From: an uncultured Chloroflexia bacterium
GTDB lineage: Bacteria > Chloroflexota > Anaerolineae > Anaerolineales > Anaerolineaceae
Reading direction: 5' to 3'
Length of the DNA: 32,000 nucleotides
NCBI GenBank assembly: GCA_963704755.1
Contig: OY969938.1
Coordinates: 3,090,001-3,122,000, forward strand
Positions 10,488 through 28,325 of the stretch are shown here, piece after piece. Position 1 is the stretch's first letter. The number at the start of each line of letters is the position of its first letter. The notes under the pieces were generated by a model. That model saw nothing but the letters and a program-made list of their open reading frames with translations, did no database searches and had not been told where the DNA came from. Both the position numbers and the translations under genes were made by a program.

Positions 10488-10515
10488 CGATTTCCTCGCT
10501 TCTTGATTGGGCCGT

Positions 10516-12241: not shown

Positions 12242-12545
12242 ACCTCCCCAAAAATCCCGTTTTTGGATTTTGGGGGAGGAAACTGGCGCTTTCCCCCAAA
12301 TCAAAAACCAATTTGGGGGAAAGCAGGGAAGGGGGGCGCTGCGCCGGCCGTCCAGTGCGCGTGGGCCGGTGTGATCGCGTCTCAGCTACCGCAAAAAAGC
12401 GGGGTGTTTTTATTGTTTATCGCGTGCGAAGCACGCGATAAACAATAAAAACACCCCGCTTTTCCGAACGAGACTGAGTAGGAATAAAAACTACACCTGA
12501 AAGCTCCTGGTCTCCCCCCCAAAAAAACCGTTTTTGGGGGAGGGA
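12242..12545. repeat. cluster of four palindromic hairpins in one intergenic region
   Basis: Three C5A(n)/T(n)G5-type hairpins: cctccccaaaaatcc...ggattttgggggagg (~12242-12280), ctttcccccaaat...atttgggggaaag (~12288-12322) and ctcccccccaaaaaaacc-gtttttgggggaggg (~12512-12545). The fourth is family 2 copy B at 12395-12463. Confidence 0.75.
12395..12463. repeat. hairpin repeat, family 2, copy B (perfect 33-bp stem, GAA loop)
   Basis: aaaagcggggtgtttttattgtttatcgcgtgc-gaa-gcacgcgataaacaataaaaacaccccgctttt. Differs from copy A by paired substitutions that keep the stem. Confidence 0.85.
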
Positions 12546-12550
12546 TTAAG

Positions 12551-13597
12551 CTACATTCCCAGCACCTGGGCAAAGTCGGCCGGGACAACGCCGGGCGATT
12601 GGACCTGGTGCTGCCGGTAGAATTCGGTCACTGCGTTGGTGATGGCTTCGCTCTCGATGGAGACACCCTTCAGAGCCTGCTCCAGTTCGAGCAGGCTGTC
12701 GGCCGGGAAGAAGAAGAAATCGCCGGAGATGTGCACGTCGTCCAGCCGGCCGTCGCGGTTGACCGCGGTCACGCGGATCAGTCCGCCGGGGGTCTTGAGC
12801 ATCTTCTGCACCACATACAGGCCCTCGGCAATCTTGACCTGGGCCGCGTCCGGGCGGCGGCGGTCGTTGGCCAGCAGCCATTCGGGTGTGTTCATTTCGG
12901 CTAGCAGTTCGTCGGCTTTGGCGGTTAGTTCGCCGTCCAGCTCTTTGGGGGTCATTTCTCCCAGCAGGGGTGTGTACAGGCGGGCCAGCTCGGCGGCCAG
13001 GTCGGCGTTGGCGGGGATGCGGCCGGTCTCGCGCAGGAAGGTGGACAGGTTTTCGTACATGGTCTTGTGAACCTTGTCGCGGAATTTCTCGTCCGGCACC
13101 CGCAGCACGCGGGTCATGGTGTCGTAGTCGAAATCCTGGATGAAATTGCCCACCAGGATGAGCATGTCCTCTACCTGTGCGGCGCCGGTGCCGGAGACCT
13201 TGCGGCCCTGGGCGACGATGTCGTTGACCGGTTTGTACTCGGCCGGCACGCCGAACGCGCGGTAGGTGTCGATGACCGGGCCGAGGAACTTGCGGTAAAA
13301 CTCGGCGATGTTGGCCGGCACACCCGGCCGGTCGCGGCGCAGGATCAACTGGAAGAAAAGCTGCTGCCCGTCCAGGAAAACCGCCCCGCCGCCGACTTCG
13401 CGGCGAAAGACGGGAATATTGTGTTGGGCGGCGTATTCCAGGTCGATTTCCTGCTGGGCGTCCTGGTGGAAACCGATGCAGACGTAAGGCGTGGCCGGGC
13501 GCAGTACGAATAAGGCTTCGCGGCCCAGGTGGGCGGCGGCGTGGTATAGGGCCTGGCTGTATTCCCAGGAAACAGCATCCAAAAAGTAGAAATCCAT
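12551..13597 (-). CDS. lipoate-protein ligase family protein (BPL/LplA/LipB catalytic domain), paralogue A
   Basis: 348 aa with an AGGAGG RBS. FRREVGGGAVFLDG (RRxxGGGAV motif) and GRKVSGTGAAQ (catalytic Lys motif). Confidence 0.8.
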   Translation of the reverse strand: MDFYFLDAVSWEYSQALYHAAAHLGREALFVLRPATPYVCIGFHQDAQQEIDLEYAAQHNIPVFRREVGGGAVFLDGQQLFFQLILRRDRPGVPANIAEFYRKFLGPVIDTYRAFGVPAEYKPVNDIVAQGRKVSGTGAAQVEDMLILVGNFIQDFDYDTMTRVLRVPDEKFRDKVHKTMYENLSTFLRETGRIPANADLAAELARLYTPLLGEMTPKELDGELTAKADELLAEMNTPEWLLANDRRRPDAAQVKIAEGLYVVQKMLKTPGGLIRVTAVNRDGRLDDVHISGDFFFFPADSLLELEQALKGVSIESEAITNAVTEFYRQHQVQSPGVVPADFAQVLGM

Positions 13598-13621
13598 GGG
13601 CTTTTTTCCTCCTTAAGAAAT

Positions 13622-13998
13622 AACCACGGAGACACGGAGAACACGGAGAAGAAAAAGAGAAGAAAAATCACCGCAGAGGCGCAGAGCACGCTGAGAAGAA
13701 TTCTTAGCAAGAGCGCCGTCGTTGGGTGCGTTTGAGGGCTGAAATTTCGAACAGGATCGAATAAACGGACTGCTGGCTTTCCCAGGCGTGCCCGGAACGC
13801 ATCGTTAGAACGCGGCCTTTACGCAAATGTGCAATGTATCAACCAGGGGCACAGAGTTCAAAGAGAAGAACTTTAGATACAAATTATAACAATTTTGAAA
13901 ACCAGGGATTTAAATTGTAAGGCAAAGAACTAAGCAAATTCGAGATGCGTTTTTAAACCTTTCTTTTTTCTTCTCCGTGTCCTCCGTGTCTCCGTGGT
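13622..13998. repeat. MITE-like element: ~35-bp terminal inverted repeats made of three 8-9-nt iterons (CACGGAGA), flanking ~300 bp of AT-richer non-coding DNA
   Basis: Left end aaccacggagacacggagaacacggagaagaaaaag. The reverse complement of the right end is aaccacggagacacggaggacacggagaagaaaaaag. It fills the gap between two ligase genes and contains no credible ORF. Confidence 0.6.
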
Positions 13999-14016
13999 TT
14001 AACTTCCCTCTGTGGA

Positions 14017-15003
14017 TTAACATTCCTTGGCCAGCAACGCATTCCACTGGTCGAAGGGCTGGCCACGCAGGCGTTCTTCCAGCCTATGCCAATCGTGAGT
14101 GGGCTGCGATTCCAGGACGGCTTCCTGGATGGTCTCGCCGGCCAGCCAGAAGTTGCCCTTAATCGTATAGCCAGCCAGGCCAGCCTCCTCATAGCGGATG
14201 CTGGCGCGGGCCGAGATTTTCAGGTTTTGCACCGGCGCGACGGCCGTATCGGGGCGGTGCAGGGCCAGGAAATCGGTCGCGGCCAGTTCGGCTGCCTGGA
14301 ACTCTACGGCTTCTAATTCGGCAGAGGTTAATTGGCCTGGTTGCAGCGGCCGGCCCATCGTTTCGGCATAGGCGTCGATCAGCAGGTCAGCGACCTGCTC
14401 CGCTGTGATCCCCGGCAGCAGCTCATTCAGGCAGGTGATCCGCTCGCGCAGGGCTTTTTGGGCCAGCCCGCGGAAAGCGGGGGTGGGCGCCTGCCAGACG
14501 GCCGCCATGGCGGCGAAATCGAAATCGAACAGCAGATTGCCCACCACCACGGTCGCTTCACCGATCTGGCCTCCGCCGGTCCCGGCGATGCGCTTCCCGT
14601 CCACTTCGATCTCGTTGACCTCGTGCAGGGCGGCGTTCAGGCCCAGCCGGCCCAGGGCCAGCACCGGGGCGGCCAGGGCGAAGGCGAAGATGTCCTTGAA
14701 CATCACCGGCATGTGCTGCCGGTGGAAGATGCACTGGTAGAAGACCTGGTTCTCGTCCAGGTAGGTCGCCCCGCCGCCGATCCGCCGGCGCAGCACCGGC
14801 AGGCCGCGCCGGGCGCATTCCTGCGGGTCGAAGATGCTTTCGAAGACCTGGTGGTAGCCCAGGCACAGGTATGGCTCGCGCGGGCGGCACAGGACGATCG
14901 TATCGGGCGAATCGTCGTCCATGCCCTCGGCCAGGGCATGGTAGATGGCCTGGGTCTGGGGGGAAGGGAGGCTGCCGAGGTTGATCAGGCGAATCGGGTT
15001 CAT
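14017..15003 (-). CDS. lipoate-protein ligase family protein, paralogue B
   Basis: 328 aa. LRRRIGGGATYLDEN and GKRIAGTGGGQ motifs. Same fold family as 12551-13597 but divergent. Confidence 0.8.
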   Translation of the reverse strand: MNPIRLINLGSLPSPQTQAIYHALAEGMDDDSPDTIVLCRPREPYLCLGYHQVFESIFDPQECARRGLPVLRRRIGGGATYLDENQVFYQCIFHRQHMPVMFKDIFAFALAAPVLALGRLGLNAALHEVNEIEVDGKRIAGTGGGQIGEATVVVGNLLFDFDFAAMAAVWQAPTPAFRGLAQKALRERITCLNELLPGITAEQVADLLIDAYAETMGRPLQPGQLTSAELEAVEFQAAELAATDFLALHRPDTAVAPVQNLKISARASIRYEEAGLAGYTIKGNFWLAGETIQEAVLESQPTHDWHRLEERLRGQPFDQWNALLAKEC

Positions 15004-15042
15004 AGAGGTCTGTGGGAGGGCTTATTCAGCCCCTCCCCCTGC

Positions 15043-15234
15043 CCCCTCCCCGCTGGCAAAAGCCTGTGTAAAACAGAGGTTATATGCGGGGAGGGGAGAA
15101 GATTTAAGAGGAGAGGGGCCAAAGGCCCCTCTCCTCTGTATTTCTTTCCCTTCCCCCAGCGAAATAAGCCTGGCTATCCCGGGCTCTATTCGCTGGGGGA
15201 GGGGTAGGGGTGGGGGCCGGGAAAATTCCCGGCC
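15043..15234. repeat. array of four G/C-rich hairpins (CCCCTCCCC/GGGGAGGGG type)
   Basis: Stems pair 15043-15053 with 15087-15097, 15107-15120 with 15124-15137, 15148-15163 with 15189-15204, and the two arms of 15215-15234. Located between the radical-SAM stop (15238) and the ligase start (15003). Confidence 0.7.
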
Positions 15235-15237
15235 GTC

Positions 15238-16347
15238 TCAGTCGGCGGCCAGGGCGGCCTGAGACCACACTTCCTCCAGCCGCATTTGCTGGCGGATGAT
15301 GGCCAGGTCGTCGGCGTCTGGCTGGAAGGGGTAGTCGCGGTATTCCTCGCCGGGGCGATAGGAGCCGTAGGGGCGGTTGCAGGCCATAACCCCATGCCGG
15401 TTGGGGCAGCCGTCGGTCATGAAAGGAATGCCCGCGCGGATGGCGGCCTCCACGGCCGCTTCGGGCGCGTCCAGGTGCAGCAGGTTACCGGCTTCATCGT
15501 AGCTGATGGCATTCGGCGCAATCTGGCCGTTCTCGATCAGGTATTTGACCAGTTGCACCCGGCGGTGACGGGCGATCGGCTGGCGGGGCTGGTCCTGGGT
15601 GACCGTGCCCGGCTCGGGGTTGAACGAGAACAGGTAGGCGGCAATCTGTTCGTCGTGGAGCTGGAAGAACAGTTCGAACAGGTCGCGGTCGCTCTCGCCC
15701 AGGCCGACGATGACGTGGCAGTTGACGTTCAGCGACCCAAAAAGGTCGCGCGCCAGGCGGATCATCTGCCAGTGGTAATCCCACTTGTGCGGGCCGCGGG
15801 TCTGTTTGCCACGGGCCTGGTCGAAGATCTCTTCGGTAGCGCCGTCCAGGCCGATGCCGATGATATCCACACCGGCCGCGCGGATCTCGCGCAGCTTTTG
15901 TTCGTCCATCAAGGTGGCGCTGACCAGCGCGGCGATGGGCACCTGCGGGGCGCGGCTGTGCACCCGCTGGATGATGTCCATCAGGTCGTCGTTGGCGCGG
16001 TGATCCTGCACCTGCGAAACGCACACCCGCCCGACCTCACGTTTGGCTTCCAGTTCGGCGATCTTTTCGGCCACCAGGTCGGTGGGGTAGAGCGGCCAGG
16101 CTACGCGGATAAAGGTGTTGTCTTCGGGCATCCCGGGGCGCTCGCGGGCCAGCCCGCAGTAGGTGCAGTTGGCGTAGCAGCCTTCGGGGTAGTTTTGCAG
16201 CAAATTGATGCAGTCACAGGTGCTGCGGTAGATCCGGCCGGGCTTAAGCCCCAATTCGATGGCCGCTGCCATGCTGATGCGCACATATTCCGGGCTGATT
16301 TGGTAAAGTTCTGCTTGTTGGCTGGCGGGTACGGTGACTTTCGCCAT
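15238..16347 (-). CDS. radical SAM protein, LipS1/LipS2-like (putative lipoyl synthase subunit)
   Basis: 369 aa with a GAGGA RBS. CxxxCxxC radical-SAM motif (GCYANCTYCG). Context of lipoate ligases plus LbpA. Confidence 0.7.
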   Translation of the reverse strand: MAKVTVPASQQAELYQISPEYVRISMAAAIELGLKPGRIYRSTCDCINLLQNYPEGCYANCTYCGLARERPGMPEDNTFIRVAWPLYPTDLVAEKIAELEAKREVGRVCVSQVQDHRANDDLMDIIQRVHSRAPQVPIAALVSATLMDEQKLREIRAAGVDIIGIGLDGATEEIFDQARGKQTRGPHKWDYHWQMIRLARDLFGSLNVNCHVIVGLGESDRDLFELFFQLHDEQIAAYLFSFNPEPGTVTQDQPRQPIARHRRVQLVKYLIENGQIAPNAISYDEAGNLLHLDAPEAAVEAAIRAGIPFMTDGCPNRHGVMACNRPYGSYRPGEEYRDYPFQPDADDLAIIRQQMRLEEVWSQAALAAD

Positions 16348-16360
16348 AATCTATCCTCAC

Positions 16361-17494
16361 TTAAGAAATGTTGGCCACAGATGCACACGAATGGACACAG
16401 ATGAAGATTTTATAAAACCCAAAAAGATGTGTTTGCTGGGGCTTCGCCCCAGCAAACACATCTTTTTTTGATTCTTTATCTGTGTGCATCTGTGTCCATC
16501 TGTGGTTAAATTCCACCCCGCAGCAAGCATTGATGAACTGCGGTTGCAGGCCGGCCTGGCGGGCGTAGTCGATGACGTCCGCGGCGGGGAAGGCGATGCC
16601 GTTCAGGCCCGCGTCCACGGCCAGGCGGTCGATGGTGGTCTTGAGGCTGCCCAACGGGCGCGCACAGCCCAACATCACCGGCGTGGTGGGGAAGGCCCGG
16701 CGCGCTTTGACAAAAAAGGCGCCGATCTCTTCCGCCGAGGGTGGCGTGACGCCGGACATCTCGGTGCGCGAGATGGGGGTCAGCACCACCAGCACCAGCA
16801 GCTTGGGTGGGTGGCGGGTGACCATCTCCAGGGCGCGTTCTTCGCCCAGCAGGCGGCCGAAGTGCAGGCCCAGCACAATGTGCGGCACGCTGGGAACGTG
16901 ATACTTTTCCAGCCAGGCCAGGGCCTCCTCGTAATCTTCGGGGTCGGCCGGCAGGTGATAGACGTCGCGGATCGTGTCGCGGTGGCCGATGATATCGATC
17001 ATCGCGCCGTCGAGGTCCAGTGCGCCTAGGGCCGCGCAGGTTTCTTCGTCCGGCAAACCCACGTGGACGCGCACGGCCAGACCCAGCTCGCGGCGGATAC
17101 GAGCGATCTCCGGCACCTGGGCCAGCAGGGGCACCCGCCCCTGGCGGTCGCTGCCGCCCGAGATCAACACACCACGGGTGCCGCGCTCGGCCAGCGAGGC
17201 GCATAGGTCGAAGAGCGAGCCTTGAAAATGATGTAAATCGGTCATGCCGCGCAGCATGCGGGTGTTGCAATGGGCGCAGTTCAGCGCGCAGGCGGTGCCG
17301 GTCAGGCTGACGGTGACGAATTCGTCGCTGGCCAGGTTGTCGTGGTCGCCGGTCTGGTAGCCGCGAAAGCCGGGCGTGTGGAAAAGGATCTCGGCGGAAA
17401 AATTGGCCTGGCGGATTGCCTGGCACTGCGCGAAAACGGCAGCCGAATCAGACAGTCCCGCCTGGTTCTCTGCCACCTGGAGCACTTCAGCCAT
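16361..17494 (-). CDS. radical SAM protein, LipS1/LipS2-like (second subunit); C-terminal ~47 codons run through a palindromic repeat
   Basis: 377 aa. CxxxCxxC motif (ACALNCAHCN). The ATG overlaps the end of the upstream ligase frame (ATGGCTGA). The tail NHRWTQMHTDKESKK...ICVHSCASVANIS is encoded by the repeat at 16375-16505. Confidence 0.7.
   Translation of the reverse strand: MAEVLQVAENQAGLSDSAAVFAQCQAIRQANFSAEILFHTPGFRGYQTGDHDNLASDEFVTVSLTGTACALNCAHCNTRMLRGMTDLHHFQGSLFDLCASLAERGTRGVLISGGSDRQGRVPLLAQVPEIARIRRELGLAVRVHVGLPDEETCAALGALDLDGAMIDIIGHRDTIRDVYHLPADPEDYEEALAWLEKYHVPSVPHIVLGLHFGRLLGEERALEMVTRHPPKLLVLVVLTPISRTEMSGVTPPSAEEIGAFFVKARRAFPTTPVMLGCARPLGSLKTTIDRLAVDAGLNGIAFPAADVIDYARQAGLQPQFINACCGVEFNHRWTQMHTDKESKKDVFAGAKPQQTHLFGFYKIFICVHSCASVANIS
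16375..16505. repeat. nested palindromic element: iteron-type inverted repeats (CACAGATG x3) around a 22-bp-stem hairpin (16421-16467)
   Basis: Left end ccacagatgcacacgaatggacacagatgaaga. The reverse complement of the right end is ccacagatggacacagatgcacacagataaaga. Centre aaaaagatgtgtttgctggggc-ttc-gccccagcaaacacatcttttt. Confidence 0.75.
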
Positions 17495-18591
17495 TCGTTT
17501 CTCCGGCCGGCTCTCCGGCCTGGCTTTCCAACTGCGAGCGAGCGGGCGACCGCTTTTTGCACCGCCAGGACAATATATTCGAGCGGGAGGCTGTTGAATT
17601 CTTCGCGCCGGCGCATATAAACTTCTTCCAATGCTGCGGCCACCTTCTCGGGCTGGCCGGAATGCCAGCGTAGGGCCCCTTCCAGTTCGGCCACGGCCGC
17701 GGCCGAAGCGAAAAAGTCACCGCCGATGTAGGCCGCCTTGATGGTCGCACCGGCCATGGTCACGCGCACGTCGATCAGACCTTCGGGGGTCTTGATCTTG
17801 CTGCCGCCGGAGGTGTCCTCCACCTGCGAGGTCTGGTAGATCCAATCGTCGCTCTGGTATTTTTCGCGTTCCAGGGTACGGATGTCCTTCAACTCTTCGT
17901 CGCTGAAATAACCGGGGACCAGGTTCACATCCATCGTCTGTTCGTAGGCCTGGATGATGATCTTGCGCACCTCGGGCACCGTGATCCGCGAGCCGGTCTC
18001 GCGCCGTACGGTGGTGAGATGTTCGCCGATGGCCGCGATTTCTTTGTCGGAAATTTTCTCGAAGGGCGTGTTGAGCACCCGCAGCATGTAGGGCACGTCC
18101 AGGTCGACCAGCACGCTGGCGTGGAAGAGCAACCCGTCCGATCTGGGCGCGATGGATACCCAGCCCGACGATCTTCTTGCCGTTGACCACAATGTCGTTC
18201 TTGCGGTGGAAGTGGGCGTCGATGCCCAGGGTTTCAGCCCCTGGACCAGGGCGGTCGAGAATTGGGTCATGATTTCGCGCGCGCGGCTGTAGGTGTCGTC
18301 CACGTGGGCGGGCAGGGTCAGGGCCACACCGAGCTGGTCCTCGCCCATGATGATCGCGCCGCCGCCGGTCGGCCGGCGGTTGATAGGGATGTTGTTCTCG
18401 CGGCAGAAGTCCACCCGCAGCTCGTGGTCCACGTTCTGGAAACGGCCGACCAGGGCGCAGTAGGAGCGGTAGCTGTACAGGCGCAGGGTCGGCACCGACG
18501 TACCGGCGCCGACTCGCTCAGCGATGGTCTCGTCGGCGCTCAGGCCAAAGGAGGCCGTGACGCCGTCATCACAGATCAGGCGCCAGTCCAT
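17487..18591 (-). pseudogene. lipoate-protein ligase family protein, paralogue C, interrupted by 2-3 single-nt frameshifts (decay or sequencing error)
   Basis: MDWRLICDDG...NRRPTGGGAIIMGED...LVQGL is in one frame. ETLGIDAHFHRKNDIVVNGKKIVGLGIHRA is in another (shift near 18231-18237). The reading returns to the first frame at DGLLFHASVLVDLD (shift near 18135-18155). The in-frame reading then runs ~190 nt into the radical-SAM gene, whereas the +1 frame stops at 17487 overlapping its ATG. Confidence 0.65.
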
Positions 18592-19059
18592 CAGTCGATC
18601 CAACCTTGCTGGCGATAGCGCTCGAGCTCGGTTTCGACCCAGACGGGCAGCTCGCCGCCGGAGACCAACTGCTGTGATTCGTTCTGCCAGTCGCTGGGGC
18701 GGATGGTCACCAGCCAGCCCGCGCGGTAGCGAGTCCTGGTTGACCAGGCCCGGGTTGCGCACGGTGGCCTCGTTGCGGGCCACGATCACGCCGCTGACCG
18801 GGGACTTGAGGTCGCCGGCCATCTTGGCCGCCTCGAGCGTGCCCAGCGATTTGCCGCGCCGGACGGTGGTGCCCACCGGCAGTAAGGTGACGTAAGCCAG
18901 GTCACCCAGGGCCGCCAACCCCAGCGCGTCGATGCCCACGATGACCTCACCCTTTTCTGGGTCGTACTGGGCCCACATGTGGTTCTCGCGGCCGTAGCAG
19001 CGATCCTCGGGCAGTGAATAGGTTTCTTCCCCGATGTTGAATTCGTTTGCTTTTTCCAT
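18591..19059 (-). pseudogene. lbpA: GcvH-like lipoate-binding protein (LbpA-type), second copy, with one frameshift
   Basis: ATG 19059 has AGGAG 7 nt upstream. MEKANEF...HMWAQ...GKSLGTLEAAKMAGDLKSPVSG carries the lipoyl-Lys motif. After NPGLVNQD the homology (YRAGWLVTIRPSDWQ...QQGWID*) continues in another frame (shift within 18721-18740). The stop overlaps the next ATG (TGATG). Span is 469 nt, not a multiple of 3. Confidence 0.65.
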
Positions 19060-19080
19060 AAATTGCTCCTGATGAAACGT

Positions 19081-19425
19081 CTTGCTCCTTCCCCCTTCGC
19101 GAAGCGTGGGGAAGGCCGGGATGAGGGTCAGCGCCGGCCAACCGAAGCATTGGCTACCCGGCAACGCCTCCCCGTTTCTTGCTCCTTCCCCCTCCGCGAA
19201 GCGTGGGGAAGGCCGGGATGAGGGTCTGCGCCGGCCAACCGCAGCATTGGCTACCCGGCAACGCCTCCCCGTTTCTTGCTCCTTCCCCCTCCGCGGAGCG
19301 TGGGGAAGGCCGGGATGAGGGTCTGCGCCGGCCAACCGAAGCATTGGCGGGCCAACAACGCCTCTCCGTTTCTTGCTCCTTCCCCCTCCGCGAAGCGTGG
19401 GGAAGGCCGGGATGAGGGTTTAGCC
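19081..19425. repeat. 97-bp tandem repeat, ~3.5 copies, each with an internal CCTTCCCC...GGGGAAGG hairpin
   Basis: Units start at 19081, 19178, 19275 and 19372 (the last one partial) and are >90% identical by eye. Non-coding position between the endopeptidase stop (19469) and the lbpA2 start (19059). Confidence 0.9.
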
Positions 19426-19468
19426 CCGGCAGGCCGAGGTAATTGCCAGCAAGCCCTGCCCTATATTG

Positions 19469-19966
19469 TTAACGAACCTGAGCTGATTTTTCCACCAGAC
19501 CCCACTCCACCAGCACTCGCCGGGCGCGGGAAACCACCTCCGGCAGGGCTTTTTCCACCGTCGCACTCATTTCCAGACCGATAGACAGGTCCTCGGGCTG
19601 GATGCCGACCAGGTGCAGGTGCTCGGGCAGGAAGCCGCGTACGTTGGCCAGCCCTAACACTTCCTGGAAGGTGACCTGGTGCTGGGATAACTTGACCCCG
19701 GCATACAGGGGAATTTGCTCTTTGCGCAGCTCGACCACCGTGCCGGCCGGCTTGCCCACGTTGACCGAGTCCAGAATGAGCAGGTGGCTGCATTCTTCCA
19801 CGATCATCAACAGGTTAAGGCCCAGCACCCCGCCGTCCAGCAGTTCCAGGCCGGGTTGGTCCCCTAATTGGGCGTCCAGGCGCTTTAAGGCCTGAACGCC
19901 CAATCCCTCATCGCGGTTAAGCACATTGCCTAACCCCAATACGACTTTGCGGAGGTTTTCAGTCAT
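19469..19966 (-). CDS. [NiFe]-hydrogenase maturation endopeptidase (HyaD/HybD/HupD family)
   Basis: 165 aa. VLGLGNVLNRDEGLG matches the GxGNxxxxDDGxG family motif. Immediately downstream of the large subunit. Confidence 0.85.
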   Translation of the reverse strand: MTENLRKVVLGLGNVLNRDEGLGVQALKRLDAQLGDQPGLELLDGGVLGLNLLMIVEECSHLLILDSVNVGKPAGTVVELRKEQIPLYAGVKLSQHQVTFQEVLGLANVRGFLPEHLHLVGIQPEDLSIGLEMSATVEKALPEVVSRARRVLVEWGLVEKSAQVR

Positions 19967-19973
19967 AACCCGG

Positions 19974-21713
<1,740 letters not shown>

Positions 21714-21740
21714 ACTATCCTCCTACAAGTTCCGTAACCA

Positions 21741-23012
21741 TTAGCGTTCTTCTTCGATCAGGGCGTCGGCGACGATTTGCGCCAGCCCGGTGACTTTCCA
21801 ATCCAGTTTGAAATGTTCGACGCCGTCGGTGAATTGGAGGCGGCAGTTAGAACAACTCATGGCAACCGTTTTGGCCCCGACCGCGTTGACCTGGTCAACC
21901 TTCAATTGAAAGGCAGCGAAGCGGTTGGGATCGGCTTCCTTGATGGCTATTACGCCGCCCCCGCCGCCGCAGCAGATCAACTCTTCCTTGTTGGGGCTCA
22001 TTTCTTTGAAAGCGTGCGGAGCCAGGATGTTGAGGATCTCACGTGGTTCTTTGATATGCCCGCCGCGGCGCTGGATCTTGCAGGCATCGTGGAAGGTGAT
22101 GGTACCGTCGTTGTCGAGCGCGCCTTCCTTGAGCTTGATCCGCCCAGCGTGGACATATTCGCCGATCAGGCCGACGATGTGGGTGATTTCCAGTCCCTCG
22201 GGGACGTCCATCAGGTTGTAGGAGGTCCAGCGCAGGGCATCGTAGGCGTGGCCGCACTCGGTGACCACCAGCTTCTTGACGCCCAGTTCCACCGCGCCGT
22301 CGAAAACGCGCTGGAGGAACATCTTGGTGCGCTCGGTGTTGCCCTCGTAGAAACCGAAGTTGACCACCTCGCGCGCCTTGGTGCTCAGGGTCCAGTTTTC
22401 GCCGGCCGCGTTGAGGATCTTGGCGATGGCGGCCACGTTGGTGGGGAATTTCATGATCTCGATCGAGCTGAAGACTACCAGCGTATCGGCGCCTTTGACG
22501 TCCACCGGGATATCGACTTCCCATTCGTCGGCCACCCATTCGATGCGGCTGTCGAACACGTCATCGGTGACGCCCAGCGGACTGCCCTCTTCCACCTGTT
22601 TGTTGACCGCGGCCATCAGGTCGTCCGGCACCATGCCCGCTTCGGAGAAGGCCGAGCGGACCTCGTGGATCAATGGCCCAAGCTGGATGCCCATCGGGCA
22701 AACCATGGAGCATTTGTTGCACAGGGTACAGGCTTCATAGACGATCTTGCTGAAGTGGTGCAAATCTTCGTCGGTGATGCGTTTGTCGATGCCCACGGCC
22801 AGCTTGAACTTGCCGGCCAGGGTGAAGCGCTGTTCGTAGGCCCGCTTGAGCAGCTCGATTTTCCAGACCGGGGCGTATTCCGGGTTGCCGGTAGCCTGGT
22901 AGAAATGGCAGGCCTCGGCGCACATCCCACAGCGCGTGCAGGCTTCCAATTGGGAGGCAGCGTACCCGCCGGTCTCTTTTACAAAAGTATTCATCGCAAT
23001 ATCAGTTTCCAT
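21741..23012 (-). CDS. isp2: Isp2: HdrD/DsrK-like Fe-S oxidoreductase with two CCG domains
   Basis: The ORF track start is 23048. ATG 23012 (METDIAMNTF) has AGGAGG 7 nt upstream and lies after the isp1 stop. Two ferredoxin-type motifs (CTRCGMCAEAC, CTLCNKCSMVCP) and CCG-domain Cys patterns (TECGHAYD; CCGGGGG...SCSNC). Confidence 0.85.
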   Translation of the reverse strand: METDIAMNTFVKETGGYAASQLEACTRCGMCAEACHFYQATGNPEYAPVWKIELLKRAYEQRFTLAGKFKLAVGIDKRITDEDLHHFSKIVYEACTLCNKCSMVCPMGIQLGPLIHEVRSAFSEAGMVPDDLMAAVNKQVEEGSPLGVTDDVFDSRIEWVADEWEVDIPVDVKGADTLVVFSSIEIMKFPTNVAAIAKILNAAGENWTLSTKAREVVNFGFYEGNTERTKMFLQRVFDGAVELGVKKLVVTECGHAYDALRWTSYNLMDVPEGLEITHIVGLIGEYVHAGRIKLKEGALDNDGTITFHDACKIQRRGGHIKEPREILNILAPHAFKEMSPNKEELICCGGGGGVIAIKEADPNRFAAFQLKVDQVNAVGAKTVAMSCSNCRLQFTDGVEHFKLDWKVTGLAQIVADALIEEER

Positions 23013-23022
23013 GCTGCCCCTC

Positions 23023-23700
23023 CTAGGGTGTGACCGCCCGTTTTCCAAAATCGGCCCCGTGGATGGCCTTGGAGAAGAAATAGAACATGAAGTGCGAGAT
23101 CCGGCTGAGCGGGATCCAGATCAGCAGCACGTCCACCGAAAGCATATGCAGGCTAAAAAGCACTTCATAGCGGAACCACAGGTGGTGGGTCATGGCGTAG
23201 CCGGTGACCATCGGCAGAAAGACCAACAGCAGGTTGAGCCATTCCGCCGGGCCGGAGATCAGCTTCAGCACCGGGTTGACCAGCCGGTTGATGAACAACG
23301 CGATCATGGCCACGATCGTGGCAGCCGCCATCCAATCCACGATGGGCAGAGGCAGGGTCGGCCAGCCAAAGCCCAACAGGCTCTTCCAGACCAGCATGTG
23401 GGCCGTCCCTAAAATCAACACCACAAACAGGCCCAGGTGGAATAATCCACCGGCCATGTAGATGATGGGGTTTCGCTTGAAGGTGTTCTTAACCCAGGGG
23501 ACAAACGGCCAAATAATAATGCCCTTGAGAAAGGAAACCGCAGCGCCGCCCACTTTGCTGCCGCGCGCGGGTACCCGGTCGGCCTGCCACCCCAGTAAAA
23601 TAATCCGTACCAGGCGGTAGACCATTCCGGCCACAAATACCAGCAGCGCCGCCTGGAAAAATACACCTCTTGCAAAGGTCAATACGTCAGTCCAGGTCAT
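23023..23700 (-). CDS. isp1: Isp1: integral-membrane b-type cytochrome (NarI/DsrM/HdrE-like)
   Basis: 225 aa with an AGGAG RBS. About five hydrophobic helices with conserved His residues. Located between the hydrogenase small and large subunit genes. Confidence 0.75.
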   Translation of the reverse strand: MTWTDVLTFARGVFFQAALLVFVAGMVYRLVRIILLGWQADRVPARGSKVGGAAVSFLKGIIIWPFVPWVKNTFKRNPIIYMAGGLFHLGLFVVLILGTAHMLVWKSLLGFGWPTLPLPIVDWMAAATIVAMIALFINRLVNPVLKLISGPAEWLNLLLVFLPMVTGYAMTHHLWFRYEVLFSLHMLSVDVLLIWIPLSRISHFMFYFFSKAIHGADFGKRAVTP

Positions 23701-23709
23701 GGTAATCTC

Positions 23710-24046
23710 CTACTTCCCTTCGTTTTTCTTTTCGCTGTGGGCGGCTTTTTTTTGTGCCTGGTTGGATAGGCCCACTCCCGCGGCCAAAACAACCCCGGCG
23801 GCCGCGGCAATCCCGGCGGTAGTGATCGCCGGTCGGTCTAACGGCGCCGATTGGCCCTGGTAGAACCCGCCGCCATCCCAGAAGGCCGGCTGTGAGCAGC
23901 CCAGGCAGGGATGCCCGGATTGGATCGGGAAGGACAACCCGCCGCTCCACTTGAGCGTGGCGCAGGAGTTGTAAGTTGTCGGGCCCTTGCAGCCCAGTTT
24001 GTACAGGCACCAACCCTGGCGAGCGCCTTCATCGTCGAAGGAACTC
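23710..24046 (-). CDS. hynS: [NiFe]-hydrogenase small subunit, C-terminal part, in a different frame
   Basis: SFDDEGARQGWCLYKLGCKGPTTYNSCATLKW...GHPCLGCSQP carries the medial and distal Fe-S cluster Cys/His ligands. It ends in a hydrophobic C-terminal anchor (ITTAGIAAAAGVVLAAGVGL). Deleting one T in gagTTcc restores one continuous ORF. Confidence 0.85.
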
Positions 24047-24844
24047 GGCAAACTTACCGGCTTCGTAGAATGGGCGGCGCAGGCAGCGGTCGTGGATGGT
24101 TTGGGCATAGAAAGTCTTGGGCCGCAGCAGTTCATCCAGCTCGGGCAGGCTGCCAAAGACCAGGAAATTGGCCAGGACGCCGGTGAATACCTCGGGGATG
24201 GCCGGGCAGCCGGGGATATTGACCAGCGGCTTACCTTGCAGCACATCGGACACACCCAGGGCGCCGGTCGGGTTCGGCTTGGCCCGCGGCAAGCCGCCGA
24301 ATGAGGCACAGTTGCCGGTAGCGATCACGGCCGCGGCTCCGGCGACCGCTTCCTGGAATAAATCCATCGAGCTGCGCCCGCCGATGGTGCAATACACGCC
24401 ATCGTCCTTGTCGGAGAGGCTGCCTTCCACCACCAGGATGTACTGCCCGGCGTATTTCTGCATGGCGGCCTGTTTGGCGCCGTCGGCCTGGAAACCGGCC
24501 GCCGCCGACAGGGTCTCGTGGTATTCCACCGTGATCTGGTTCAGCACCAGGTCCACCAGGGTGGGCGACTGGCTGCGGGTCAGCGCTTCAGTACACCCGG
24601 CACAGTCTTGAAATTCCAGCCAGATAACTGGCAGTCGCGATTTGGTTTCCAGCGCGTGCGCAACCATCCCCACCAGTTTCTGGTTGCTTTCCAGATGGCT
24701 AGAGAAGTCGCTGGCCTGGGCCGACTGGACTGGCGGCAGGGCGTTCAACCCCAACGCGCCTGCCATCACACCGCAGAATTTCAAGAAATTGCGCCGGGAG
24801 AGGCCAGCTTTTATCATCTCTTCGTAGATTGTATCTTTAGCCAT
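24029..24844 (-). CDS. hynS: [NiFe]-hydrogenase small subunit, N-terminal ~270 aa (reading frame broken near 24042)
   Basis: GGAGGG RBS and Tat signal SRRNFLKF...AQA. Proximal-cluster motifs EFQDCAGCTE and GNCASFGG, plus IPGCPA. The frame ends prematurely (…GKFAEFLRR*). Confidence 0.9.
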   Translation of the reverse strand: MAKDTIYEEMIKAGLSRRNFLKFCGVMAGALGLNALPPVQSAQASDFSSHLESNQKLVGMVAHALETKSRLPVIWLEFQDCAGCTEALTRSQSPTLVDLVLNQITVEYHETLSAAAGFQADGAKQAAMQKYAGQYILVVEGSLSDKDDGVYCTIGGRSSMDLFQEAVAGAAAVIATGNCASFGGLPRAKPNPTGALGVSDVLQGKPLVNIPGCPAIPEVFTGVLANFLVFGSLPELDELLRPKTFYAQTIHDRCLRRPFYEAGKFAEFLRR

Positions 24845-25032
24845 CGGTCCCTCCGTTGAGTTACTTCCTGTGTTCGAAATTTGGTTTTTCTCCCTGGAAA
24901 AGCCCTGCTGCGCAGCTTTTTGGCCGGCACGAGCGGATCAATTGACAGAACCCTGGGAGATAGGAACAAAATACCAGACCCGGGTAATGCCTGCTTACTC
25001 GGGCTAAACAGAAAAATGAATTGAGCTAACCG

Positions 25033-25479
25033 CTAGCTACAGGTGATGTTGTCGGCTTCCAGTTTGGCCTGATAAGCGGCTATGCCATCCGCACCGGTGA
25101 CCAGGGCGGATTTCTCGCCGTCCCAGTCCGAGGCCTGCATCTCGGCGACCCAGCCTTCTCCATAAGGGTCGCTGACTGCCAGGTTGGGGTCGTCGGCCAG
25201 TTTTGTGTTGGCGCGCAGCAATACACCCGTAATCGGAGCCGGTACGGGCCCGACGAATTTGCTGCTCTCGACGGTTGCGATGCTCTTGGCTTGTTTGACT
25301 TCCTGGCCGATGTTTTTGGCCTTGACCGTAATTGCAGCCAGTTTTCCACCGGAAAGCTTGCCGGCTACGGCCGTGATCCCGACGCGAATGACGCCGCCAT
25401 CCAGCGGCTTTGCCCAGACGTGTTTTTCGATCAGATAATACAGGTCTTCGGGCAGGTTGCATCCCCGAACATTCGTCAT
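25033..25479 (-). CDS. lbpA: GcvH-like lipoate-binding protein (LbpA-type)
   Basis: 148 aa with an AGGAGG RBS. EKHVWAKP...VGIT...SIATVESSKFVGPVPAPITG carries the lipoyl-Lys motif, followed by DPYGEGW. Context of TusA/DsrE rather than glycine cleavage T/P proteins. Confidence 0.85.
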   Translation of the reverse strand: MTNVRGCNLPEDLYYLIEKHVWAKPLDGGVIRVGITAVAGKLSGGKLAAITVKAKNIGQEVKQAKSIATVESSKFVGPVPAPITGVLLRANTKLADDPNLAVSDPYGEGWVAEMQASDWDGEKSALVTGADGIAAYQAKLEADNITCS

Positions 25480-25584
25480 ACGTCCTCCTTTACGAAATGT
25501 GAAAGGTGCTGTCCGGCTTCCGGCAAAAAGTAGTTCGTTTTAGCTGCGAGGGGTATCCGTTGGCAGGAGCAGCGCGGGAAATTA

Positions 25585-25953
25585 TTAGAAAGTGAGTACG
25601 GTCTTGCAATCTTCGGCAATTTGCCACATGGTGGCGCCGCCGACCATTTTAATGCCGTCGATCAAGTCAGAGGGCTGTAAATCATGCAGTTCGGTAGAGG
25701 CGGTGCAGGCCAGGAAAGTCACGCCGCCATCCAGGGCATCCTGGATGAAGTCACTGACGGGCTTGCCGCCTTCTTTGGGGTAGACGGTCTCGGCCAGGCC
25801 TTTTTTCAATAATAAGGTGCCGTCGATGGTGAAGAACATAGTCACGTCGTAGTCCATGGCGGCAGCCAGGCTGGCGAAGAAGAACGGGGTTGCGCAGCGG
25901 CGGGGGGTATCCGGGCCGCTCGTCATCACAATCATTACTTTATCATCTGCCAT
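25585..25953 (-). CDS. DsrE/DsrF-family sulfur-relay protein
   Basis: 122 aa with a GGAGG RBS. YchN/DsrE-like fold pattern (VMIVMTSGP...) with a candidate active-site Cys in FLACTAS. Confidence 0.7.
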   Translation of the reverse strand: MADDKVMIVMTSGPDTPRRCATPFFFASLAAAMDYDVTMFFTIDGTLLLKKGLAETVYPKEGGKPVSDFIQDALDGGVTFLACTASTELHDLQPSDLIDGIKMVGGATMWQIAEDCKTVLTF

Positions 25954-25974
25954 TATTTCCTCCGGATGATTTGA

Positions 25975-26451
25975 TTAGAAAGTCAGCGAGATTGCATTTT
26001 CGCTGGCATAGCTGAGGAATGTCGCGGCCCCGCCGATCTCGATCCCGTCGATCAGGTCCTCTTTCTTGACGCCCATCACATCCATGGTCATCTGGCAGGC
26101 GATCATGCGGACACCGCCATCCAGGGCGATCTCGAGTAAATCGCTGAGCTTGGCTACGTTGGCCTTTTTCATCCAGCCATTCATCATACCGGTTGCCACA
26201 GAGGTCATTCCGGGCAGCATACCGATGATATTGGGTACCGGCACAGGCATAGCCGGGTTGGCGATCGGCGCCACCTTGAGTTTGTCGGCGTTGTCCTTTT
26301 TCAGGATTTCCAGGCCAAAAAAGGTAAAGAAGATGGCTACTTCCATTTCCAGGGCCAGGGCGGCTGTGCCCAGGATCAAGGGTGGGTAGGCTGCATCCAG
26401 AGTACCATGGGCGGCGATGATTGCCAAACGTTTGCTGCTTTCTTCGCTCAT
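25975..26451 (-). CDS. dsrE3: DsrE3-like sulfurtransferase (DsrE family, longer form)
   Basis: 158 aa with an AAGGAG RBS. LAIIAAHGTLD...FFTFFGL...MIACQMTMD. The length and the Cys context resemble DsrE3 proteins that accompany TusA in hdr-like clusters. Confidence 0.6.
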   Translation of the reverse strand: MSEESSKRLAIIAAHGTLDAAYPPLILGTAALALEMEVAIFFTFFGLEILKKDNADKLKVAPIANPAMPVPVPNIIGMLPGMTSVATGMMNGWMKKANVAKLSDLLEIALDGGVRMIACQMTMDVMGVKKEDLIDGIEIGGAATFLSYASENAISLTF

Positions 26452-26555
26452 ATTGAGCTCCTTTTCTAATCAAATTGTTGCGGCTGTCCGGTTTAGGGCA
26501 GTATCTTGTGAATGAAAAATTGAATAAAAAACCCGTCCGGCTTTATTCGAGGCGC

Positions 26556-26792
26556 TTACTTGGTTTTTTTAATGTAGAAGATGAATTTTCCGCTTTCCTG
26601 TTCCGATCCGACCAGCTCGTGGCCGGTTTTCTTGGTCCAGGCGTCGATATCGCTGGTGGAGCCGGGGTCAGTGGCGATCATTTTCAATACCTGGCCAATC
26701 TGTAAACCATCGACGGCTTTCTTGGTCTTCAAAATGGGCATGGGGCAGGCCATGCCGCTGCAATCCAGGGTCTGATCTGATGATACGGACAT
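26556..26792 (-). CDS. tusA: TusA-family sulfur carrier protein
   Basis: 78 aa. LDCSGMACPMPILKTKKA contains the CPxP active-site motif. Confidence 0.9.
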   Translation of the reverse strand: MSVSSDQTLDCSGMACPMPILKTKKAVDGLQIGQVLKMIATDPGSTSDIDAWTKKTGHELVGSEQESGKFIFYIKKTK

Positions 26793-26821
26793 TTGAATCT
26801 CCTTTATTGATTTTTGGACAA

Positions 26822-27586
26822 TTATGACTTGATTGCCGGGCGGATCGAGCTGATTTCGGCGATGCGCTGCAAACGGTTCATCAAACCGGAACGCTCACAA
26901 AGAATGGATTGGACCGTTCCGGCAACTTTGGGGGTCCATTCCATGACTTTCTCTTGTTGGTATTTCTTCAGGACCGGGATCTTGCGGGCAGCCTCCTTGA
27001 GCTGGTCCAGGGGAATTGCGTGTTTTTCGGATAGCTTTTGCAAGTGCTCCTCTTCTTTTTCGGGGTCGGGCTCGCTGGTGTAGAACTGGCCGCCGATCAG
27101 CCAGGCGACCGGCTGGCCATCCGAGGTGATGAGGGAGCGTTTGTAGTTCAGCCCGGCGTGGCAGACCTGGATGGGCGGATCGCCATTCGGCACAACGGCA
27201 ACCTTGCGCCAGGTGGCCTGGCAGGCCCGCCGGCCTGATTCTGAGGCCAGCATCAATTTGCAAAAAGAATTGCAACAGGTAGGCTGGGTCAGCGGGTCGC
27301 CCTGGCGAGAAACCGTGACGGCGCCGATGCCGATGATCCCGGCGTAGATTTCTTGCACTTTCTCGACACAATCGGAGGGGAAATCGGTAAGGAAATCTTC
27401 TTCCGCCTCGCTGGCGTTTTTTTCTGGTTCTGCTCCCATCAAGCGATCGATCTCAGTTTGAGGGAAACGCCATTGATTGCCGATCTTGACGCCTTTCAAC
27501 CGGCCGTCATTCAGCATGCGATAGACCGTGATCCGGTCTATTTTGAGTAGGTCTTGAATTTGCTTGGTCGTGAGGAGTTCGCTCAT
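26822..27586 (-). CDS. transcriptional regulator: excisionase/MerR-type HTH fused to a PocR-like sensory domain
   Basis: 254 aa. The N-terminus LLTTKQIQDLLKIDRITVYRMLNDGRLKGVKIGNQWRF is a HTH_17-type motif. The C-terminal domain has PocR-like Cys patterns (CCNSFCKLM...RRAC...VCHAGL). First gene of the supercluster, 29 nt upstream of tusA. Confidence 0.7.
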   Translation of the reverse strand: MSELLTTKQIQDLLKIDRITVYRMLNDGRLKGVKIGNQWRFPQTEIDRLMGAEPEKNASEAEEDFLTDFPSDCVEKVQEIYAGIIGIGAVTVSRQGDPLTQPTCCNSFCKLMLASESGRRACQATWRKVAVVPNGDPPIQVCHAGLNYKRSLITSDGQPVAWLIGGQFYTSEPDPEKEEEHLQKLSEKHAIPLDQLKEAARKIPVLKKYQQEKVMEWTPKVAGTVQSILCERSGLMNRLQRIAEISSIRPAIKS

Positions 27587-27785: not shown

Positions 27786-28325
27786 CTACGGCAAAGCCTC
27801 TCCACGGCCGGCCAGGAACAGGCGGTACCAGTCTTCGCGGCCCAGCTCGACCTGGTCACCCTGGCAGGCGGCGGCGATACGCTGCGGGCGGGTGGTGCCG
27901 ATGATGGGCTGCATGTGAGCCGGGTGGCGCAGGATCCAGGCGGTCAGGATGGCTTCGGCCGGCACACCATGGGCTTTGGCCAGTTGGGCGACCACCACAG
28001 AAGCCTGGGTGGCCCGTTCATCTGCTTCGCCATCGTCGCGGCCGGTCAGCCGGCCCCAGGCCAGCGAACCCCAGGTCTGCAAGGTGATGTTGTGCATGCG
28101 GCAATACTCGATGGTGCCTTCGTTGCGGGCCAGCAGGGGATTATCCTGGTTGAAGACGATACCCTCGTTGAGCATATGCAGGTTGAGCGGGTTGAATGCC
28201 ACCTGGTTGGCCACAATGGGCTGGTCGAGGGATTGGCGCAGCAGCTCCAGTTGGGCGGCGGTGTGGTTGCTGACCCCGAACCAGCGCACCTTGCCGGCCT
28301 GGTGGAGCTCATCGAAGGCGCGGGC
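27786..28325 (-). pseudogene. aldo/keto reductase, C-terminal ~180 aa only (5'-truncated)
   Basis: AFDELHQAGKVRWFGVSNHTAAQ...LQTWGSLAWGRLTG...PIIGTTRPQRI are AKR motifs from the middle to the end of the fold. The N-terminal catalytic part (DxxxxY) is missing. Similarity stops at ~28325, where transposase-like sequence begins. Confidence 0.7.

Follow-up and report, generated by a model that had tools for sequence, protein, structure and literature searches.

Gene content of the locus

We analyzed a window of 32,000 nucleotides from the genome of an uncultured Chloroflexia bacterium of the family Anaerolineaceae (GenBank assembly GCA_963704755.1, contig OY969938.1, positions 3,090,001 to 3,122,000), which carries the genes of a [NiFe] hydrogenase together with genes for TusA, DsrE-family proteins and a lipoate-binding protein (LbpA). 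Gene identities were assigned from open reading frame (ORF) calls combined with Pfam and NCBIfam profile scans of the window proteins. Between positions 12551 and 27586 the minus strand carries an uninterrupted gene array in which all genes are co-oriented, as had been claimed in an earlier, sequence-only reading of this DNA. The profile searches confirmed the regulator, TusA, two DsrE proteins, LbpA, the hyn-isp genes, the endopeptidase, three LplA-like ligases and LipS1/LipS2, and every motif quoted in that reading (CPMP, VESSKF, RIEGH, RACGVC, DPCMACAIH and CCGGGGG) is present in the translations. The gene order it had given was correct for the head of the array and for the hydrogenase part; the tail, described there as lbpA2, three ligases and two radical-SAM genes, actually runs gcvH-like gene, ligase, lipS1, lipS2, ligase, ligase. 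No RNA gene was detected in the window by Rfam or tRNA scans. The window HynL is 83–91% identical to proteins of Anaerolineaceae and other Chloroflexota metagenome-assembled genomes (MAGs), and the window LbpA is 81–91% identical to Anaerolineaceae proteins named "glycine cleavage system H protein" at source.

The regulator and sulfur-carrier cassette

All array genes described below lie on the minus strand. The first (26822–27586) encodes a transcriptional regulator with an HTH_17 domain and a PocR sensor (Pfam PocR, 4.5e-27; HTH_17, 2.2e-13). Downstream of it lie a tusA gene (26556–26792; Pfam TusA, 5e-27), a gene for a DsrE3/DsrE2-like sulfur transferase of 158 aa (25975–26451; Pfam DrsE_2, 3.1e-49) and a gene for a small DsrE-family protein of 122 aa (25585–25953; Pfam DsrE, 1.3e-17). 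The DsrE3-like protein scores 175 bits on the NCBIfam DsrE2 model, under the cut-off of 210. Ortholog alignments demonstrated that the cysteines of these proteins are strictly maintained: TusA Cys16, which lies in the CPMP motif, is 100% conserved in 71 sequences, and Cys119 of the DsrE3-like protein and both Cys20 and Cys83 of the small DsrE are invariant. TusA, the small DsrE and LbpA contain no hydrophobic segment, and the DsrE3-like protein contains one weak segment.

The next gene (25033–25479) encodes a GCV_H protein of 148 aa (Pfam GCV_H, 5.8e-26) that scores under the NCBIfam GcvH cut-offs and carries its lipoyl lysine in the sequence VESSKF. LbpA proteins are defined by this lysine together with two cysteines, close to the N- and the C-terminus respectively, which are strictly conserved among them and absent from GcvH (Cao et al. 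2018, PMC6067878). Cys7, Lys74 and Cys147 are invariant in 77 sequences (the window protein and 76 orthologues), and they are still invariant once sHdr-linked LbpAs join the alignment. The presence of the three family-defining residues identifies the predicted protein as a true LbpA. The two cysteines constitute the known LbpA signature (PMC6067878) rather than a new feature. An AlphaFold2 model of the protein reached a pLDDT of 95.8 overall, and a search of solved structures with LbpA returned GcvH proteins only. A DsrC-like flexible C-terminal arm was also considered and ruled out, the model being ordered to its end.

The Isp-type hydrogenase

Directly after lbpA, hynS (23710–24844) encodes the [NiFe] hydrogenase small subunit, recognized by Oxidored_q6 and NiFe_hyd_SSU_C, with a twin-arginine translocation (Tat) motif (SRRNFLKF) and a C-terminal membrane anchor; its frame is broken near 24040, as discussed below. 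The isp1 gene (23023–23700) has no Pfam match and encodes a membrane cytochrome-b-like subunit that matches the NCBIfam models TmcC (7.8e-37) and HmcE (4.9e-31), both below cut-off, and shows several hydrophobic segments and seven histidines, consistent with a multi-transmembrane protein. The isp2 gene (21741–23012) encodes a protein without any hydrophobic segment, predicted to be a cytoplasmic HdrD/DsrK-like iron-sulfur protein (Pfam Fer4_8 and CCG; NCBIfam DsrK, 7e-68, HmcF and TmcB, all below cut-off), to which a search of solved structures returned weak matches only. Its ortholog alignment contains 14 conserved cysteines, 12 of them fully conserved and two at 99%, which make up two CxxCxxCxxxC motifs, one complete CX35CCGX38CXXC motif and a degenerate first CCG domain with a single conserved cysteine. 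Accordingly, the two 4Fe-4S motifs proposed earlier for Isp2 stand, but the two CCG domains do not, since Pfam sees one and the other is degenerate.

The large subunit gene hynL (19974–21713; Pfam NiFeSe_Hases, 3.2e-229) contains the RIEGH motif, and its Ni-binding cysteine pairs (RACGVC and DPCMACAIH) can be read directly from the translation. Among solved structures it is closest to the Isp-type enzyme of Allochromatium vinosum (3MYR_B, 824 bits), and the next hit is a group 1d enzyme (711 bits). It is followed by a gene for a maturation endopeptidase of the HyaD/HybD type (19469–19966; Pfam HycI, 1.8e-24; NCBIfam hydrogenase maturation protease, 128 bits, above cut-off). The split order hynS-isp1-isp2-hynL, which the sequence-only reading had pointed out, is present in the window and in all 80 relatives described in the next section. 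The similarity of HynL to 3MYR, taken together with this gene order, fits an Isp-type, group 1e-like hydrogenase. Judging from the topology signals, H2 would be oxidized on the outer side of the membrane, with the CCG enzyme and the carriers on the inner side.

Compared with the Isp-type hydrogenases of Thiocapsa, Allochromatium and Acidithiobacillus, the window enzyme shares the order hynS-isp1-isp2-hynL, the Tat-exported small subunit, the cytochrome-b-like Isp1, the HdrD-like Isp2 and a large subunit closest to that of A. vinosum (3MYR), in a family with a physiological link to sulfur reduction with H2 (PMC10892978, PMC7735108). It differs in its Chloroflexota host, in its PocR-type regulator and in the addition of TusA, two or three DsrE proteins, LbpA and a ligase to the operon, none of which is mentioned in the proteobacterial descriptions (PMC10892978, PMC7735108). 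Group 1e enzymes are tied to H2-dependent sulfur reduction in these same papers, where Isp2 is described only by its similarity to heterodisulfide reductase and no acceptor is named.

The operon core is conserved across Anaerolineae

Isp2 was used as the query against one genome per GTDB species, which yielded 317 relatives, and the best 80 of these (69–84% identity, nearly all from Anaerolineae or other Chloroflexota) were annotated with the window proteins. A locus was counted for a feature only when its contig extended far enough to inform on it. LbpA adjoins hynS, directly upstream of it, in all 75 informative loci. The small DsrE is present in 72 of 74, the DsrE3-like protein in 68 of 70 and TusA in 68 of 69, a PocR-like regulator occupies the first position in 54 of 59, and a lipoate ligase lies downstream of the endopeptidase gene in 55 of 59. 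Three relatives fetched with HynL contain genes for the regulator, TusA, DrsE_2, DsrE, GCV_H, HynS, Isp1, Isp2, HynL, HycI and the 348-aa ligase in the order of the window, and their flanking genes beyond this unit are unrelated to each other. The co-occurrence of hynS-isp1-isp2-hynL with lbpA, tusA and dsrE, noted for the window in the sequence-only reading, thus extends across the loci of 80 species.

These results define a conserved unit consisting of the PocR-type regulator, TusA, the DsrE3-like protein, the small DsrE, LbpA, HynS, Isp1, Isp2, HynL, the endopeptidase and a dedicated ligase, and this operon is widespread in Anaerolineae. As the core order recurs in 80 other species, the arrangement is not due to chance; as the flanks differ between loci, the unit moves as a block. 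Clustering of the flanking ORFs in the 80 loci revealed few recurring families, namely hypABCDEF, sigma-54 response regulators and histidine kinases. The "supercluster" of the sequence-only reading is therefore not one unit: it splits into a conserved core, from the regulator to the 348-aa ligase, and a rare add-on block that is described further below.

Several variations on this organization were observed among the relatives. An additional ORF of about 107 aa lies between isp2 and hynL in 34 of the 80 (for example L012:11247-11582, L015:11247-11582 and L037:11253-11573, and 31 more) and is missing from the window; its sequence, including several of its cysteines, is well conserved, and its only match, a weak one, is SpoIIAA/STAS-like (E 0.003). 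Many relatives carry a third DsrE-family gene between tusA and the DsrE3-like gene (L006:6177-6668, L025:6340-6723, L066:6224-6721; Pfam DsrE, 5e-15), where the window has two in total. The full operon was also found in MAGs labelled Aminicenantes, Ignavibacteriota, Pseudomonadota, Bacteroidetes, Actinomycetota and Calditrichaceae (L022, L042, L044, L056, L065 and L080), which reflects either mis-binning or lateral transfer out of Chloroflexota. A search of plasmids for a canonical annotated Isp locus returned one distant relative only, on a Methylovirgula plasmid (33% identity), and this Isp2-like locus has no annotated tusA, dsrE or lbpA.

The accessory proteins resemble those of sHdr clusters, and sHdr itself is absent from the locus

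The nearest LbpA relatives that we looked up outside Anaerolineae (42–52% identity) lie in canonical sHdr clusters, which are of type II in a Dormibacterota MAG and a Limnocylindrales MAG and of type I in Ectothiorhodospira. The other accessory proteins show a similar affinity: LbpA is 52% identical to a sHdr-cluster LbpA, TusA 51% identical to the sHdr-cluster TusA of Ectothiorhodospira, the DsrE3-like protein 51% identical to the sHdr-cluster DsrE3 of locus L087, the small DsrE 45% identical to a small DsrE encoded between two lbpA genes of L087, and the 348-aa ligase 41% identical (253 bits) to the ligase of the Dormibacterota sHdr cluster. LipS1 and LipS2 are 38–39% identical (LipS2, 39%) to two radical-SAM proteins of a sHdr cluster. 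The earlier interpretation of TusA, DsrE, LbpA and ligase as the accessory module of sHdr is supported by the Cys/Lys/Cys signature of LbpA and by these identities of 41–52% to sHdr-cluster proteins.

Homologs of the sHdr pathway were sought by tblastn with sHdrA, B1, B2, B3, C1, C2, H, EtfA, EtfB, EMO and LipT from two sHdr clusters (L086 and L087), a query set that covers type I and type II genes and that was run against the window and the regions within 10 kb of Isp2 in 81 related loci. No homolog of sHdrA, B1, B2, C1 or H, of EtfAB or of LipT was found in this search space, in agreement with the absence of shdr genes from the window noted earlier, and the adjacency of cassette and hydrogenase is conserved with no sHdr operon just outside it. 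The only matches, which were weak, came from sHdrB3, EMO and sHdrC2, and all were to Isp2 itself. Window Isp2 is 22–24% identical to sHdrB3 and EMO of L086 (L086:3753-5036 and 6861-9137; E 7e-11 and 5e-6), and matches of sHdrB3 and EMO to the Isp2 of relatives reached E values down to 4e-16 (an sHdrB3 example: 24% identity, E about 1e-16). Isp2 is the only window sequence matched by these three queries, which bears out its proposed status as the sole local HdrD-like partner. Isp2, sHdrB3 and EMO share an HdrD-like Fer4+CCG build, and each of them is found next to LbpA.

The published sHdr organisms have lbpA within the shdr cluster or adjacent to it, and LbpA works with sHdr in all published cases (PMC6067878). 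In the loci searched here lbpA has no shdr cluster as a neighbor, and the second habitual companion of LbpA, a dedicated LplA-like ligase, is present as the 348-aa ligase that ends the operon. With the type I and type II sHdr-LbpA systems of Hyphomicrobium, Thioalkalivibrio, Aquifex, Sulfobacillus and Thermomicrobium the locus shares TusA, a DsrE3-type protein, a small DsrE, the Cys/Lys/Cys signature of LbpA, a dedicated Lpl(AB)-type ligase and, in this genome, LipS1 and LipS2. Unlike those systems, it has no sHdrA/B1/B2/C1/C2/H, EtfAB/EMO or LipT nearby, it contains instead a periplasmic hydrogenase with membrane-bound Isp1/Isp2, and its direction is likely to be reductive rather than oxidative.

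A second comparison is with the DsrMK(JOP)-DsrC trisulfide system and the Hmc and Tmc complexes of sulfate reducers. These share with the window a membrane cytochrome b and a cytoplasmic CCG protein (matches to the DsrK/HmcF/TmcB and TmcC/HmcE models), and the DsrMK/DsrC system shares the concept of a small protein-borne sulfur or disulfide substrate reduced at a CCG cluster. They differ in that all window scores are under the family cut-offs: Isp2 reaches 229 bits on the NCBIfam DsrK model (cut-off, 400) and Isp1 19 bits on the DsrM model (cut-off, 300), so that the pair does not qualify as a DsrMK module. Here, moreover, the candidate carrier is a lipoylated GcvH-fold protein and the donor hydrogenase is wired directly to the module. 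No DsrC-like ORF was recognized in the array, although no search aimed at DsrC was made.

A model of H2-driven sulfur reduction and its alternatives

The position of the hydrogenase genes, with lbpA on one side and its ligase on the other, speaks for a single functional unit, and some direct functional coupling between the carrier cassette and the hydrogenase is, judging from this arrangement, quite probable. On balance we favor, by a narrow measure, the reading that the operon encodes an Isp-type periplasmic [NiFe] hydrogenase joined to the sHdr accessory module in place of sHdr, with Isp2 reducing LbpA-borne sulfur. In this model, H2 would be oxidized outside the membrane by the Tat-exported HynSL, and the electrons would cross the membrane through the cytochrome-b-like Isp1 and arrive at Isp2, the HdrD/DsrK-like protein in the cytoplasm. 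Its CCG-bound cluster would then reduce a disulfide, persulfide or trisulfide on lipoylated LbpA, located at the lipoamide dithiol and/or at Cys7 and Cys147, and TusA and the DsrE proteins would load sulfane sulfur on LbpA or take it off, for a net reaction of H2 and carrier-bound S(0) to H2S. With protons released outside and consumed inside, energy could be conserved in the style of a redox loop. The role of LbpA toward Isp2 would be that of DsrC toward DsrK. The scheme also agrees with the part in H2-dependent sulfur reduction that is reported for Isp-type enzymes (PMC10892978, PMC7735108).

The specific scheme of H2-driven reduction of an LbpA-borne disulfide or sulfane sulfur is put forward tentatively, as a possibility that falls a little short of even. 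Slightly more guarded again is the suggestion that LbpA serves as the physiological redox and sulfur carrier substrate of Isp2, as DsrC does for DsrK, which would make the operon a self-contained H2:sulfane-sulfur oxidoreductase. Energetically, lipoamide has a more positive E0' (about -290 mV) than H2 (-414 mV), and with lipoamide and polysulfide near -290 to -260 mV against -414 mV for H2, the reductive scheme runs downhill. What the analysis establishes is the gene content and its conservation, the topology signals and the kinship with sHdr accessory proteins. That Isp2 contacts LbpA, which way the electrons flow and what serves as sulfur substrate are inferred, the proposed electron exchange between the two proteins following from their gene neighborhood.

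Several observations weigh against this model. The putative Isp2–LbpA contact is read from gene neighborhood, and these genomes could contain genes for sHdr, DsrC or some other partner of LbpA at a different place. To our knowledge the Isp-type enzyme of purple sulfur bacteria works without LbpA, so LbpA is not a general Isp2 substrate. The C-terminal Cys147 region of LbpA is well ordered in the AlphaFold2 model (pLDDT 92) and gives no support for a DsrC-like flexible arm. The clustering of flanking ORFs revealed no sulfur importer or polysulfide-handling gene that recurs beside the operon, and hynS is frameshifted in this assembly, an indel that, if real, could leave the local system inactive.

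One alternative to the favored reading is that the cassette and the hydrogenase are neighbors without direct coupling, the cassette serving an enzyme encoded elsewhere (sHdr or another CCG protein) and sharing a regulator and promoter with a hydrogenase that feeds the quinone pool through Isp1. This fits with LbpA working with sHdr in all published cases (PMC6067878), with the occurrence of type I and type II sHdr systems in Chloroflexota (PMC11094781), with the reach of the negative sHdr search, which is limited to the window and to 10 kb around Isp2, and with the canonical Isp-type loci, which work without LbpA, as well as the distant Methylovirgula plasmid locus. Yet mere co-location would have to account for an order kept over 80 species despite changing flanks, for hydrogenase genes enclosed by lbpA and its ligase, for an lbpA with no shdr cluster within 10 kb of Isp2 when published lbpA genes lie in or beside one (PMC6067878), and for the HdrD-like build that Isp2 shares with sHdrB3 and EMO, the companions of LbpA in type II clusters. 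We consider it improbable.

If the parts are coupled, the electrons could also run the other way. Isp1/Isp2 would then act like DsrMK, passing electrons from reduced LbpA, in its dihydrolipoyl or thiol form, to the quinone pool or, where the H2 pressure is very low, to protons, so that carrier sulfur is oxidized or reductant disposed of. Many Anaerolineae are described as fermenters releasing H2, the relatives of the cassette belong to an oxidative pathway, and HydDB, as quoted in PMC7735108, calls group 1e enzymes bidirectional. Electron transfer from lipoamide (about -290 mV) to H+/H2 (-414 mV) is uphill, however; the operon lacks sHdrA/B1/C1, the subunits thought to oxidize sulfane to sulfite, and a Tat-exported, periplasm-facing hydrogenase suits H2 uptake, all of which makes this direction quite improbable. 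It is very improbable, finally, that LbpA is a pure electron shuttle, with H2 reducing lipoyl-LbpA through Isp2, dihydrolipoamide dehydrogenase (E3) handing the electrons to NAD+, and the sulfur transferases serving only sensing or persulfide repair. E3 enzymes normally re-oxidize lipoyl proteins, the dedicated ligase shows that lipoylation matters, and a shared E3 for LbpA has been discussed by Cao et al. (PMC6067878). A shuttle of this kind nevertheless leaves no central role for TusA and the two or three DsrE proteins, all of which have an invariant cysteine in the active site; the two invariant LbpA-specific cysteines point to sulfur binding, and no E3 gene recurs near the operon in the clustered flanks.

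Full-text literature searches found no description of a linkage of LbpA, TusA and DsrE to an Isp hydrogenase, nor of this Anaerolineae operon, in line with the sequence-only reading, which was aware of none. All parts come from known families; what is new is the combination and its implication. LbpA is described in the literature as "inevitably" tied to sHdr, and if the model of H2-driven sulfur reduction is true, this would be the first LbpA function outside sHdr, the first defined Isp2 substrate and a new type of energy-conserving sulfur respiration. The operon offers a concrete candidate acceptor for Isp2, which makes that open question testable, and a conserved LbpA cassette with a different CCG enzyme suggests that lipoylated LbpA may be a more general partner of HdrD-like proteins, in which case the published rule would have to be broadened. 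Anaerolineae are reported from anaerobic digesters and sediments, where H2-driven reduction of sulfane sulfur would, if confirmed, represent an unrecognized H2 sink and sulfide source. Because lbpA is routinely annotated as "glycine cleavage system H protein", metabolic reconstructions overlook the system.

Lipoate ligases and the LipS1/LipS2 add-on block

The last gene of the conserved core encodes the 348-aa lipoate-protein ligase (12551–13597; Pfam LplA-B_cat, 3.7e-35, and Lip_prot_lig_C). In L001, L002 and most relatives it stands directly after the endopeptidase gene, and in the window an add-on block of five genes is interposed. The block begins with a gene for a GcvH-like lipoyl protein (18591–19059; Pfam GCV_H, positions 5–90 of 122 in the long ORF), which has a frameshift near 18730; the frame-corrected protein of 155 aa aligns end to end with its intact orthologue in L066. 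This is the "lbpA2" of the sequence-only reading, a name that does not hold: the lipoyl lysine is present, both LbpA cysteines are missing, and the orthologues in L066 and L071 have no cysteine whatever. An Lpl(AB)-type lipoate-protein ligase gene follows (17487–18591; Pfam LplA-B_cat and Lip_prot_lig_C), interrupted by three 1-nt indels; once frame-corrected, its product is 79% identical, end to end, to that of the intact L066 gene. Next come a lipS1-type radical-SAM lipoyl synthase gene (16361–17494; NCBIfam LipS1, 4.8e-67, 226.4 bits against a cut-off of 230, residues 57–325) and a lipS2-type gene (15238–16347; NCBIfam LipS2, 1.4e-58, 198.7 bits against a cut-off of 270). The block ends with a gene for an LplA-like protein of 328 aa with a catalytic domain only (14017–15003; Pfam LplA-B_cat, 2.2e-30; weak NCBIfam ligase matches).

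The complete block of gcvH-like gene, Lpl(AB) ligase, lipS1, lipS2 and ligase occurs in 2 of the 80 relatives only (L066 and L071), and L015 has part of it. In L066 and L071 the block replaces the 348-aa ligase; the window carries both. The LipS1/LipS2 block is therefore an occasional add-on outside the conserved unit, and in this genome it may provide an optional supply of lipoate made de novo. LipS1/S2 genes beside an Lpl(AB)-type ligase, with some rearrangement, have been reported for Chloroflexota (Tanabe et al. 2023, PMC10332631). The window agrees with the Lpl(AB)-LipS1/LipS2 assembly pathway described there in that proteins matching the LipS1 and LipS2 models adjoin an Lpl(AB)-type ligase; it differs in that LipS1 is slightly and LipS2 clearly under the curated cut-offs, and in that the block adds a GcvH-like protein without the LbpA cysteines and a ligase with a catalytic domain only.

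Base composition was considered as a sign of foreign origin of the block, and this was rejected: the G+C content of the block is 0.636, yet that of the conserved 348-aa ligase gene is 0.63, and the L071 block is not G+C-rich. A 97-bp tandem repeat of 3.5 copies (19080–19419; TRF score 610, 95% matches) sits exactly at the junction between the core, at the endopeptidase gene, and the add-on block. A search for the pattern of this repeat gave four matches against 0 expected by chance, and it has no Rfam match. Palindromic or inverted-repeat elements also occupy the spacers of the add-on (12395–12463, 13622–13999, 15088–15204 and 16361–16509); among the structures seen are a hairpin whose 33-nt arms pair perfectly, immediately downstream of the 348-aa ligase gene, and two 35-nt inverted repeats on either side of 308 nt. 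The last 47 codons of lipS1 run into the palindromic insert at 16361–16509, where hairpins lie between lipS1 and lipS2, and the resulting 47-aa tail is absent in the L066 orthologue.

Five frameshifts in the local copy

Five 1-nt indels, all within 17.5–24.1 kb of the window, break hynS (one), the gcvH-like gene (one, at the site given above) and the Lpl(AB) ligase gene (three). Compared with the 374-aa hynS of L001, which is intact, the window hynS has one extra base near 24040, such that positions 1–22 of NiFe_hyd_SSU_C share the frame of Oxidored_q6 and positions 23–76 lie in another frame. The ligase indels are near 18229, 18139 and 17540, and through the last of these the gene loses its natural TGA, which overlaps with the start codon of lipS1. 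The three indels with a resolved context are at short homopolymers, coding sequence is well conserved on both sides of the indels, and we noticed no further frameshift in those genes that were inspected elsewhere in the window.

The indels are likely to be assembly errors rather than signs of decay, because all five are single-base changes flanked by conserved coding sequence, the three with a resolved context being at short homopolymers, and because the source suggests a long-read assembly, being a single contig of 4,871,623 bp. In addition, gene fragmentation among the relatives is found mainly in "MFD" MAG loci (for example L019, L026, L031 and L041), a label that we took to mean long-read MAGs, and seldom in other MAG loci. 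That all five are real mutations, leaving hynS, the gcvH-like gene and the Lpl(AB) ligase gene as pseudogenes in the local copy, is unlikely, even though they fall within 6.6 kb with none noticed in the other inspected window genes, three of them hit one ligase that is redundant with the 348-aa ligase, and a truncated aldo/keto reductase gene and many repeat insertions lie nearby. Exact look-ups of the window HynL, Isp1 and LipS2 returned no contig on record, and that of LbpA returned a 1.5-kb short-read contig only, which reaches none of the frameshift sites.

Genes flanking the array

On the 5' side of the array lie a 5'-truncated aldo/keto reductase gene, an acyltransferase gene and a LarA-like gene. 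The aldo/keto reductase ORF (27786–28403) covers positions 118–278 of the 291 of the Pfam model only, and no sequence for its N-terminal part was found upstream in any frame, which makes it a truncated leftover bordering the operon on its upstream side. Directly 3' of the operon, on the same strand (5460–11988), is a group of genes not kept beside it in relatives: three paralogous HlyD-type adaptor genes (475–490 aa), followed by genes for a MacB-type ATPase and permease.

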